Shown one piece after another: positions 34,143 to 63,004 of a stretch of 64,000 nt of DNA. Location: positions 8,246,001 through 8,310,000 of the forward strand of contig CATOCA020000001.1 of assembly GCA_951406725.2 (NCBI GenBank). Reading direction: 5' to 3'. Numbering within the stretch: the first letter of the stretch is position 1; every line of letters starts with the position of its first letter. Below the pieces are notes generated by a model. That model did not search any database. It saw only the letters and a program-made list of their open reading frames with translations, and was not told where the DNA came from. The DNA comes from Octopus vulgaris. Its lineage: Eukaryota. The position numbers and the translations under genes were made by a program.

Positions 34143-34230
34143 AATATATATATATATATATATATATATATATATATATATATATAGATAGATAGATAGA
34201 TAGATAGATAGATAGATAGATAGATAGATA

Positions 34231-37200
34231 ACTTTTTATTGTAGCCACACAGGGCTAAACACAAAATAAAAATGGACGAAATACAATGTAGAATTTTTCT
34301 TTTCGAGGTGGGATGTGTGGGGCACAAAAAAAACAACGTTTGATCAATAGGGATCTGTGGGTTGTGTGGTGTATAAAAAAGCAATAATATATATATATAT
34401 ATATATATATATATATATATAAGGTTCACAGTTTAGGTGTAGCCCTGGAAAGAAAAACCTACAAAAAAGACCAAGGTCACCTCAGACAATTCGAAAAAGA
34501 ACACATGAGCAAGTCGCCTTACTTCTCGTTGTCTCTTTTGGTTACAGATTTATGCTTAAAATAGTGTCGTCTTTCATACTGACCATTTTTGCCACTTTTA
34601 CCCACTTTTTATTAAAACATTCGTTCGACAAAGCCTTCCTCTCTATTCTCATCCTCCTTTTCAAGTGGTACTTGAAAAAGTTGACGAGAGACTGACCAGA
34701 GAGGAAGGTGTTTGTTTGCAGTCCTTTCAAACGCGTCCACCACACACATTCTTTCGCCATAGCCATCAGCGTAACGAAAACCGTTTTCCCTTCCCGTTTA
34801 AAGGAAGGTGGTGGAACAATATTCACGATAGACTCGGCCGATAGGCGAGCCTGACCTACACGTGACAACAGCTGTTCGACGAAGGACCACAGCTCTGAAA
34901 TATCTGGACACTGCACGAGTGCGTGCAGAACGGTTTCGTCGCTCTGACCGCATCTCGGGCAGGTCGGTCCGGTGATGGTTTTCGAACCATGCCTGTAGCT
35001 CTTCTCTCGAACGGGTAGTGCGTCTCGATAGCACTGCCAAGCCAGGGATTTCTGGAAGTTATCCATAGGCCCCGGCCCGAACGTCGTCCTGAACAGGCGG
35101 GTTAGGAATTTCTCGTCGACGCCCAGGTTTGCCCCGAGTGTGTCGTCGGACCTCCCTCCACTAGTCCTCTATAGAACGCTTTAGTCGTTTGTAAGTTGCA
35201 CAAGTTTGACCCCGGTCGGCAGAGCTGCTGTAGAGCTTGGCGACACTCTCGGTGCCAATCGCCCAGTTTCGGTCTCTTTTTGATCCACGTTTGCAGTTCG
35301 GTCAGTGAGACGAGTTGCGGGAAGAGGCGCCTCACAAATGGCGCCCACACCTGTTCACCGTCGTCGATGAAGTTCCAGAGATGCCGCAGTCTCAGCGCAT
35401 GCCTGCGCATCATCAACCACGGCATGCCCAGTCCTCCATTCAACGGATGTTGACAGCAAATGGACTTCCTCACCATCGGAACGCCACCCTTCCACAGGAA
35501 GCGGAAGAGTATGCGTTCCAGTTTGGTGATGGTGGAGTCGGGACAAGGTACGACGGTCAGGCGGTAATCGATGACGGATGCGATGTACGCGTTCGCCACC
35601 TCCGCCCGGCCTTTTAGAGACAGCTTTCTCTCGGCCCATGTTTGGCTGAGAGCGACCACTCTACTCGTGATCTCGTCCCAGTTCTTATCCATTTGGAGGT
35701 CCGGACTGAACCAGACCCCGAGCAATTTAACCGGTCCGTCCTTCCAGCGTCCCACTACTGAGCCGCAGTCGGACGGCATGGGCTTGCTTCTCCAGGTGCC
35801 GAGTAGCAAACCCACTGACTTTTCCGGGTTAATCTTCGCTCCCGTCACCGTTTCGTATTTTCTTAGTGTCTCGCCTATCATCTGGATGTGTTTGTCGCTC
35901 GACACTATGACGGTGACATCGTCCGCATATGCCGACACGCTCGTCCCGCAACCCAGTTCCCGTGGGATGCCCCTCAGTGTCGCCAGCTTCCGTAGTAGCG
36001 GCTCGAGAGTCAATACATACCGAAGCGCCGACAGGGGACACCCCTGACGGACCGAACGTGTGATGTCAAACGGTTTCGACAGGTGACCGTTCACCCGAAT
36101 CACCGATCGGATGCCGCTATACAAGGCAGCGATCCAACCGCGGAAGACGGAACCGAAGCCAGCCGCCCTGAGGACGGCCGCCAAGTACCGATGGTCGACC
36201 CTATCGAAGGCTTTAGACTGATCCAAATTGATCAGCGCCCCACCCATGCCAGGATCCTTAACTACCCTGTCCACAATGTAGCGCATCAGATGGAGGTTGT
36301 CATGTATGGTTCTGCCCGGCACGGCGCATGTTTGCGCCCTGTCGACCAGTTTATCAATGACAAGCGCCAACCTCTCGGCTATTACTTTGGCCAAAATTTT
36401 CAAATCTGCGTTGAGCAGAGTGATGGGCCTGAAATAATCTATAAAATTCCCCTTGTTTGGGTCTTTCCTCAGCAACGTCACTGCACCTCGGCTCACGAAA
36501 CCGGGGATTCTCCCGTTTTGTTGCCAGTTGCAGTAGACTGATGCCAAGAGGTCGCCAAACAAGTCTGGCATTTGACAATACAGCTCGTAGGGTAAACCAT
36601 CCAATCCAGGCGACTTATCCCTCGTGCAGCCCGCCATCGCATCCCACACGTCAGCGGCTGTGATGGGACTTTCACAACACTCCGCTTCTCTTGCCGAGAG
36701 CCGCGGCAGGTCGGTCAGGTAGGCACTGAAATCCATCCCACGTTCCGACCCACCACTCGCACCAAACAGTCGAGCAAAGTGCTGTTGAAAGGCCTCACAC
36801 ATCCTTTCGGGTTCGAGTAAACTGCATCCCTGTTGATCTATTAAAGACCGAATGGTGTCTCTGTTGCCACGCTGCGCCTCCGCTACCCGGGCCTCTCGCG
36901 CAGCTTCGATCCCTTCCTTCCTTAAGGCACGCATTTTAGCTCTGACGACCCAACCTCCGTGCTTGGCGTTGAGGTGTTGGTCGAGGGCCATCCTCGCAGC
37001 CAGCACGTTGGTTGCGCTGCCAGTGGTAAGTGCCTCTTCTAGTTTCTTAACCAGGTCTCCCTCTACTCTATTTCGATCTATCGCTAATTCCTTGCTAAAC
37101 CTAATTGATTCCGATTTTATTGCCATTTTCAGGGCGTACCACCAGCGGTTGTTAACGACGGCTCCCGTCAGCGCCCTCTTAATTAACTCGCTAATCCGGT

Positions 37201-62099: not shown

Positions 62100-63004
62100 T
62101 ATCTATCTATCTATCTATCTATCTATCTATCTATCTATATATATATATATATATATATATATATATATATATATATATATATTGCGTGGTAAGTAGCTTG
62201 CTAACCAACCACATGGTTCCGGGTTCAGTCCCACTGCGTGGCATCTTGGGCAAGTGTCTTCTGCTATAGCCCCAGGCCGACCAATGCCTTGTGAGTGGAT
62301 TTGGTAGACGGAAACTGAAAGAAGCCTGTCGTATATATTTATATATATATATGTAAGTGTGTGTGTGTTTGTGTGTCCCCCTAGCATTGCTTGACAACCG
62401 ATGCTGGTGTGTTTACGTCCCCGTCGCTTAGCGGTTCGGCAAAATAGACCGATAGAATAAGTACTGGGCTTACAAAGAATAAGTCCCGGGGTCGATTTGC
62501 TCGACTAAAGGCGGTGCTCCAGCATGGCCGCAGTCAAATGACTGAAACAAGTAAAAGAGTAATATATATATGTGTGTGTGTGTGTGCGCGCGTGTGTGTG
62601 TGTGTGTGTGTGTGTGTATATTTAAATAATAAAGGTAAAAAATTGAATATTAATTTAATTAATATCAATTTAAACCAGTGGCCTAGCATATTGAAAAAAA
62701 TTCTGAAGATTCAGAAAAAATAATATTACATACATATTAGAGGGTGGTGGTCATTCCTCTTATGTGTGTGTGTGTGTGTGTGTGTGTGTATATATATATA
62801 AACGAAATTTAGAGGACTGACCACTAAAAGTGGACACCCTGTATGCTAGATATAGACGTCAATTGGTTTTAATTGATTAATATTAATTTCTACCCTTATG
62901 TAATTTTATATATATACTAGCAGTATCGCCCGGCGTTGCTCGGGTTTGTAAGGGAAATAATTATATAAGCATTATTAGAGAGTTATAGCCAAAAAATAGG
63001 ATTC

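Follow-up and report, generated by a model that had tools for sequence, protein, structure and literature searches.

Tx1 retrotransposons chained inside TATC/GATA microsatellites of Octopus vulgaris and their probable targeting of this repeat

A chain of Tx1-type elements in GATA tracts

The window analysed here, a 64,000-nucleotide stretch of Octopus vulgaris DNA (GCA_951406725.2, contig CATOCA020000001.1, positions 8,246,001 to 8,310,000), contains five Tx1-type copies, which represent three elements (A, B and C) and alternate with tracts (T1 to T7) of a GATA/TATC microsatellite. Reading of the sequence together with a print-out of the junctions places T4, C, T3, B, T2, A and T1, followed by a (TA)n run, in a left arm on the minus strand, and T5, B, T6, A and T7 in a right arm on the plus strand, beyond a 1.2 kb non-Tx1 spacer. 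The initial annotation had read the left arm as GATA-C-GATA-B-GATA-A-GATA, and the mapped tracts agree with this order. The features are as follows, in window coordinates:

34187..34230, no strand: T1, (GATA)11 on the plus strand, the 3' flank of A-left, adjoining the (TA)n run
34231..40112, minus strand: element A, left copy, full length, with ORF1 (one CCHC knuckle) and ORF2 (APE-RT-zf)
40113..40508, no strand: T2, a compound GATA/GGTA tract of ~400 bp separating A and B
40509..46668, minus strand: element B, left copy, full length, with frameshifts within homopolymer runs
46669..46857, no strand: T3, a GATA tract separating B and C
46858..48100, minus strand: element C, 5'-truncated, with ORF2 from about residue 865 and the 3'UTR, beginning straight in TATC
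48101..48434, no strand: T4, a free GATA/GGAT tract at the head of the left array, with no element 3' end upstream
48435..49631, no strand: central spacer of the inverted duplication, non-Tx1
49632..49700, no strand: T5, a free CATC/TATC tract at the head of the right array, with no element 3' end upstream
49701..55885, plus strand: element B, right copy, full length
49920..52073, plus strand: ORF1 of B, in three pieces split at homopolymer runs, with one CCHC knuckle
52116..55553, plus strand: ORF2 of B, 1145 aa, uninterrupted
55886..56202, no strand: T6, a TATC/TACC tract separating B and A
56203..62099, plus strand: element A, right copy
62100..62135, no strand: T7, (TATC)9, the 3' flank of A-right, followed by (TA)n

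The two arms are related by an inverted duplication. Self-BLAST identifies 49.6-64 kb as an inverted copy of ~31.8-46.7 kb (31777-46741 against 49629-64000, at least 14 kb), and its inner boundary falls in a TATC tract. The left and right copies of B differ by 12 substitutions in 6150 aligned bases (0.20%), those of A by 21 in 5883 (0.36%), and the duplicated flank by 17 in 1227 (1.39%); the ORF2 of A-right (58339-61470) ends early at a stop codon where the left copy reads on. The duplication may have arisen through genuine template switching or may be a misjoin of haplotypes. A fold-back artefact within a single read is unlikely, as the block structure of T2 is not that of T6 and the centre shows an asymmetry of 2.9 kb. 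The inverted copying would postdate the array, and probably took the form of a switch between the opposed tracts T3 and T5 or between the B copies.

Other repeats were observed nearby. The spacer holds a diverged 113-bp direct repeat (81%; 48470-48579 and 49498-49609), the second copy of which stops just short of T5, and the duplicated flank contains a 257-bp tandem repeat beside long CAG/TAG tracts (32392-33313 and 63002-63413). A 5.66 kb unit with another RT element (24% to the Tx1 ORF2) is present in tandem and inverted copies of 97-99% identity at 1-11242 and 18239-23950.

The elements, their junctions and copies elsewhere

Pfam matches in ORF2 comprise Exo_endo_phos, RVT_1 and zf-RVT. In the ORF2 of B, the APE endonuclease occupies aa 6-222, the RT 508-756 and the zf-RVT 978-1031, the APE catalytic positions N8, E37, D141, N143, D202 and H227 are all present in the alignment, and the nearest PDB match is human L1 ORF2p (E 4.7e-61). 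A zf-CCHC match in the ORF1 pieces lies over the cut-off for A and just under it for B. The elements thus display the traits of L1/Tx1-type APE non-LTR retrotransposons, namely an APE-RT-zinc finger ORF2, a separate upstream CCHC ORF1, a 5'-truncated copy and no LTRs. Among named proteins, the nearest come from Argonauta hians (65% and 55%); the ESM Atlas returned only generic APE-RT clusters without taxa, and a search of viral contigs gave no match to the element. Most frameshifts fall in homopolymer runs and are not the same in the two arms, and contigs of the public sequencing runs X1 and X5 have one extra base at three homopolymer places of B-left; based on these observations, many of the ORF breaks are probably assembly errors.

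Pairwise, A, B and C are 14.7-19.7% apart in the DNA of the ORF2 C-terminus and 35-43% apart in the 3'UTR. The ORF2 proteins of A and B are 81% identical, and their ORF1 cores only 33-37%. Because of this divergence in ORF1, ORF2 and 3'UTR, A, B and C must be regarded as separate insertions and not as products of tandem duplication, which upholds the original count of at least three independent insertions. The right arm being a copy of the left, the independent evidence in the window consists of three elements and six distinct junctions, with the T5/B junction possibly a seventh.

Two terminal motifs are conserved. The 14-mer AGCCCTGTGTGGCT, a small hairpin near the 3' terminus, is identical in the five copies and occurs exactly five times in the window (55859-55872 and 62074-62087 on the plus strand; 46866-46879, 40522-40535 and 34243-34256 on the minus strand). 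Folded singly, A, B and C each show the 3' hairpin, with z-scores of -0.8 to 0.6; RNAalifold on nine mixed ends gave no consensus and no covariation support, the hairpins being unaligned. At the other terminus, a 53-bp motif is 85% identical between B (49705-49757, plus strand) and A (56203-56255), and has been kept though the remaining 5'UTR and ORF1 diverged. It holds a splice-donor-like AAG/GTAAT, and 5' ends of the sister clade described below have AAG/GTAAGT at a similar distance. Judged by its sequence, the motif could possibly belong to a 5'UTR intron or an internal promoter. A ribozyme or snRNA origin was considered and rejected, since Rfam gave no match at gathering level across 46000-62500 and only weak chance matches.

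All ten ends of the five copies adjoin sense-strand TATC or CATC units, and both flanks of every copy, 5'-truncated C included, consist of the same microsatellite. Inspection of the junctions revealed no poly(A) at any of the five copies. Both results bear out the initial annotation, which had described every junction, 5' and 3', as lying in (TATC)n with the sense strand on the TATC strand, and the elements as lacking poly(A). The 3' junctions read AATAAAAAGT|TATC for A, AATAAAAGAAAGT|TATC for B and AATATAGA|ATCT for C, and all 5' ends are preceded by TATC/CATC units. The flanking units are TATC with TACC and CATC variants, and a single TTCC unit occurs within T2. The 5' end of C is joined straight to TATC (TATCT|GCGAC), as had been noted; the CT microhomology proposed for this joint holds only if the lost upstream part of C matched that of B.

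Seven of the eight merged TATC/GATA tracts of at least three units in the window abut a Tx1 end, and the eighth, of 12 bp (30631-30642), is the sole such tract in the ~36 kb outside the cluster. Hence, the association between Tx1 and TATC is far beyond chance. A tblastn search of the window gave ten HSPs, of which seven come from the five Tx1 copies and three (24-28% identity) from another, distant RT; it found no further Tx1 pieces. Searches of the window with the 3'UTRs and the 14-mer found no element 3' end upstream of T4 or T5. Since these two tracts head arrays without an upstream element end, TATC is not merely a tail made by the element.

Additional junctions were found outside the window. 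Among the matches listed, at least 20 runs from 9 studies contain half or more of the ORF2 words, and four runs (X1, X5, X23 and X24) were mapped to B-left. The raw-read runs X23 and X24, with 17 and 27 element reads covering 7 and 11 of 30 bins, were left out of the evidence. In X5, a joint leads from 41338 to a GATA flank, with AGATAG between, at a summed contig depth of 720.5, which is not taken as copy number. A loose end at 41319, present in 11 contigs of the same run, runs on as a C/A-like subfamily before changing to AGATAGATA. We read this joint and loose end as one further truncation point, shared by several copies of a C/A-like subfamily that start right after TATCT. In X1, a contig across the 5' end of B continues into the GATA flank. 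No unique DNA was seen at either terminus among the 17 of 1219 rows with loose ends, a sample from which short-read contigs with unique flanks may escape by failing to map.

A metagenome scan yielded 80 Tx1-like loci, mostly at ~24-34% identity. A simple-repeat scan found TATC at the element end in none of them; locus L065 has four ATCT units at its contig start. An Rfam scan on 40 of the 80 loci was used only for tree labels. Two side observations concern a (ATTG)9 tract after the A-rich end of a distant Tx1-like element (L047, 4174-4210), possibly another repeat-associated family, and a U1 snRNA match downstream of a Tx1-like locus (L032, 9202-9356).

Place among Tx1 elements, the sister clade and a SINE

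Two RT trees unite the octopod sequences with a sister group (38-43% ORF2 identity) in one fully supported clade, and both place this clade amid loci with U2 or 5S matches in their flanks. FastTree recovers a 0.993 clade with 98 sequences and leaves the position within the larger clade unresolved; IQ-TREE in fast mode, with 44 sequences, makes the clade sister to a U2-flanked group (aLRT 100). It should be noted that the trees are subsets obtained after removing short and redundant rows (98 of 191, then 44), that they carry labels from Rfam flanks without named Repbase or human L1 sequences, and that the root is one distant RT. As far as this placement goes, A, B and C are members of the Tx1 clade, their RT grouping with target-specific Tx1 elements. 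Mutsu elements are linked to 5S. The Keno (U2)- and Mutsu (5S)-like loci, named from their flanks only, surround the octopod clade in both trees and share ~28-30% ORF2 identity with the octopod elements; their targets are RNA genes and not microsatellites.

A genome scan returned 46 loci at 40-44% identity, 40 of which come from one bacterial MAG (G001; loci L081-L118, L123 and L126), whose contigs evidently hold animal DNA binned along with it. One MAG contig shows at least 12 consecutive Tx1 element ends. The sister clade (the P0005-P0031 group, with arrays in G001) forms head-to-tail arrays of 6.4-6.8 kb units without microsatellites, and G001 contains 51 matches to its pattern of 3' hairpin plus AATAAA. 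Downstream of every one of the 30 sister 3' ends fetched lies one of three fixed spacers, none of them a repeat (19, 6 and 5 cases). The same fixed spacer precedes the ORF2-truncated copies L143 and L144, and in L089 another fixed spacer precedes the first array element, after unique DNA. The spacers thus have the pattern of a duplicated fixed target, which would be ~16-17 bp long. One sister subgroup shares 73% identity with a named protein from a cuttlefish, so the octopod/sister lineage probably spans the coleoid cephalopods and has switched target more than once.

The sister elements resemble A, B and C in their head-to-tail arrays, their similar 3' hairpin with AATAAA and the lack of poly(A). 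They differ in their fixed, 11-17 bp non-microsatellite spacers and, mostly, in a longer endonuclease hairpin loop: the beta-hairpin loop has 9 residues in the octopod element, like human L1, and 11-13 in most sister proteins. In a Tx1L chimera it is also longer than the 9 residues of the octopod element.

The window also contains SINE-like repeats, which we take to resemble octopus SINEs:

17624..17857, plus strand: SINE-like repeat, the last ~45 bp of which resemble the 3' end of B
28462-28690, minus strand: other copy
11745-12826 and 23948-24669: tandem units (184-186 bp arrays)

The last 43 bp of the SINE are 84% identical to the end of B, a shared 3' tail that suggests a SINE with a Tx1 partner. 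Its hairpin loop, CTTGT, is that of the sister clade and not the one found in A, B and C, so the SINE may be mobilised by a different Tx1 family. No SINE copy in the window lies within TATC; the copies without TATC sit at TA-rich sites. ARAGORN detected no tRNA in the SINE, leaving a tRNA-derived head unconfirmed. In the parts covered of PMC4758252 and PMC3747384, no Tx1 partner is named for an octopus SINE.

Target choice and comparison with known elements

The best reading of these results is that A, B and C make up a family with (TATC)n as its target, and that this family belongs to a cephalopod Tx1 lineage of sequence-specific elements that form arrays. This view is supported by six distinct junctions and one outside truncation point, all joined to TATC; against it stand the sample, which comprises only three insertions at one locus and that one outside truncation point, with no empty site seen, the SINE that has the shared 3' tail but lies outside TATC, and the beta-hairpin loop of 9 residues as in human L1. 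Active targeting, whether through the endonuclease or through the RNA tail, is in our opinion highly likely. We favour, with some reserve, the view that A, B and C are octopod Tx1 subfamilies that would insert by TPRT into existing (TATC)n/(GATA)n in one orientation, with the endonuclease as the main source of specificity. Consistent with such a role, the Tx1L endonuclease is sequence-specific in vitro (PMC1950540, in the portion covered). The same paper describes the beta-hairpin loop as shaping target choice in L1-type endonucleases, and the L1 nick as 5'-TTTT/AA.

According to this endonuclease-based scheme, the APE would always nick at one T/A step of the GATA strand (GAT/AGAT), and copying would start from that nick while ORF2p holds the 3' hairpin of the RNA. 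The second strand would be cut in the same phase, giving a duplication that is a multiple of 4 bp and hidden inside the repeat. As the target would be left on both sides of each insertion, later copies of any subfamily could enter that tract in turn, and a head-to-tail chain would grow. At the X5 truncation the left flank ends exactly in TATCT, and at C, A and B it is compatible with this ending; the right flank of C can begin only with ATCT; these three informative junctions (two 5' and one 3') are no more than suggestive of a fixed phase, with a nick at GAT/AGAT and a duplication that is a multiple of 4 bp.

Specificity could also reside in the RNA. Read-through transcripts ending in (UAUC)n would pair with the nicked GATA strand, and a loose, T/A-cutting APE would prime efficiently only in TATC. 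Several observations fit: poly(A) is absent and the repeat begins ~6-15 nt from the 3' hairpin, the proposed nick is a T/A step as in L1, the beta-hairpin loop has the length found in L1, and SINE copies with a related tail but no TATC occupy TA-rich sites. However, the fixed non-repeat sites hit by the sister elements are more easily explained by nuclease specificity, and the SINE loop fits the sister clade, so that its partner may be another of the 80 L1-Tx1 families of O. vulgaris (PMC13282606). We consider RNA guidance rather unlikely. Less probable still, and in our view doubtful, is that there is no strict targeting at all, with broad insertion followed by survival or pile-up in microsatellite-rich heterochromatin, TATC serving as a tail and the chains being products of recombination among TATC tracts or of faulty assembly. 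The region is indeed rich in tandem and inverted duplications, homopolymer frameshifts point to a noisy long-read assembly, and the loose ends visible at read level are limited to the small fraction of rows given above. Yet two different 5'-truncation points (C and X5) are joined straight to TATC, T4 and T5 are not tails, TATC outside the cluster amounts to 12 bp in ~36 kb, and the divergence among A, B and C is too great for copies produced by misassembly.

Returning to the endonuclease-based targeting that we prefer, the claim in the initial annotation of a new GATA-specific Tx1 lineage can be retained in part. Insertion into (GATA/TATC)n is backed by the free head tracts, the second truncation junction and the sister clade; "new lineage" was overstated, given the crocodilian (TTCC)n and (TTTC)n Tx1 families (PMC4494074). 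We found no GATA-specific Tx1 family in the literature, a search outside whose scope Repbase and Dfam lay and which does not establish absence from print. The text covered of PMC4494074, which lists Kibi (TC)n, Koshi (TTC)n and the crocodilian (TTCC)n or (TTTC)n families, contains neither GATA nor TATC, and calls a family microsatellite-specific when more than 20% of its genomic copies are flanked by the repeat; that of PMC3812793 gives ACAY, AC, TC, TTC and TAA as targets of APE elements. In PMC13282606, the 80 families of O. vulgaris amount to 56 Mb, with 13 recently active, and targets go unmentioned in the parts covered. It is a tentative proposal, which we would not yet back, that the locus holds a (GATA)n-specific retrotransposon not described before, its ORF2 intact, whose cephalopod Tx1 lineage gave up fixed unique targets for a microsatellite in an event separate from that of Kibi and Koshi, and that relatives of this element drive one abundant octopus SINE by means of a shared 3' tail.

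If true, GATA, a widespread animal microsatellite, would join the short list of APE-retrotransposon targets, and some of the octopus L1-Tx1 DNA, 56 Mb in all, would occupy microsatellite safe sites, which bears on assembly and marker design. How APE endonucleases change specificity was described as not well understood in a 2013 review (PMC3812793, in the part covered), and close relatives (41% identity) with different fixed targets would provide a natural series for such changes. A further outcome is a candidate partner of the Tx1 type for an octopus SINE. As microsatellite targeting by Tx1 is already known in principle, the surprise is moderate.

Among known systems, the crocodilian Tx1 group (Tx1-1_Crp, Tx1-5_Crp, Tx1-1_Gav, Tx1-2_AMi and others) belongs to the same clade and prefers a tetranucleotide, (TTCC)n or (TTTC)n (Kojima 2015, PMC4494074, in the text covered). 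TTTC is one letter from the octopod TATC; the group uses another repeat in another host phylum, and is set against A, B and C by description only. The teleost Kibi (TC)n and Koshi (TTC)n are, like A, B and C, APE-type Tx1 elements within microsatellites (cited in PMC4494074 and PMC3812793), but with di- and trinucleotide targets in fishes; they too are compared by description, being absent from our trees. The target unit of A, B and C, TATC, is not TC, TTC, TTCC or TTTC, which sets them apart from all these families. TRAS and SART belong to the R1 clade. Together with Waldo and Mino, they are APE-type elements that reside within simple repeats as A, B and C do (telomeric TTAGG for TRAS/SART, ACAY and AC for Waldo/Mino; PMC7265360 and PMC3812793, as far as covered), and a title cited in PMC3812793 assigns Waldo and Mino to the R1 clade as well. 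SART1Bm requires a long poly(A) tail, whereas A, B and C have none. The octopod elements very probably represent a Tx1 family that targets (TATC)n and works like Kibi, Koshi and the crocodilian families, with a different target unit.
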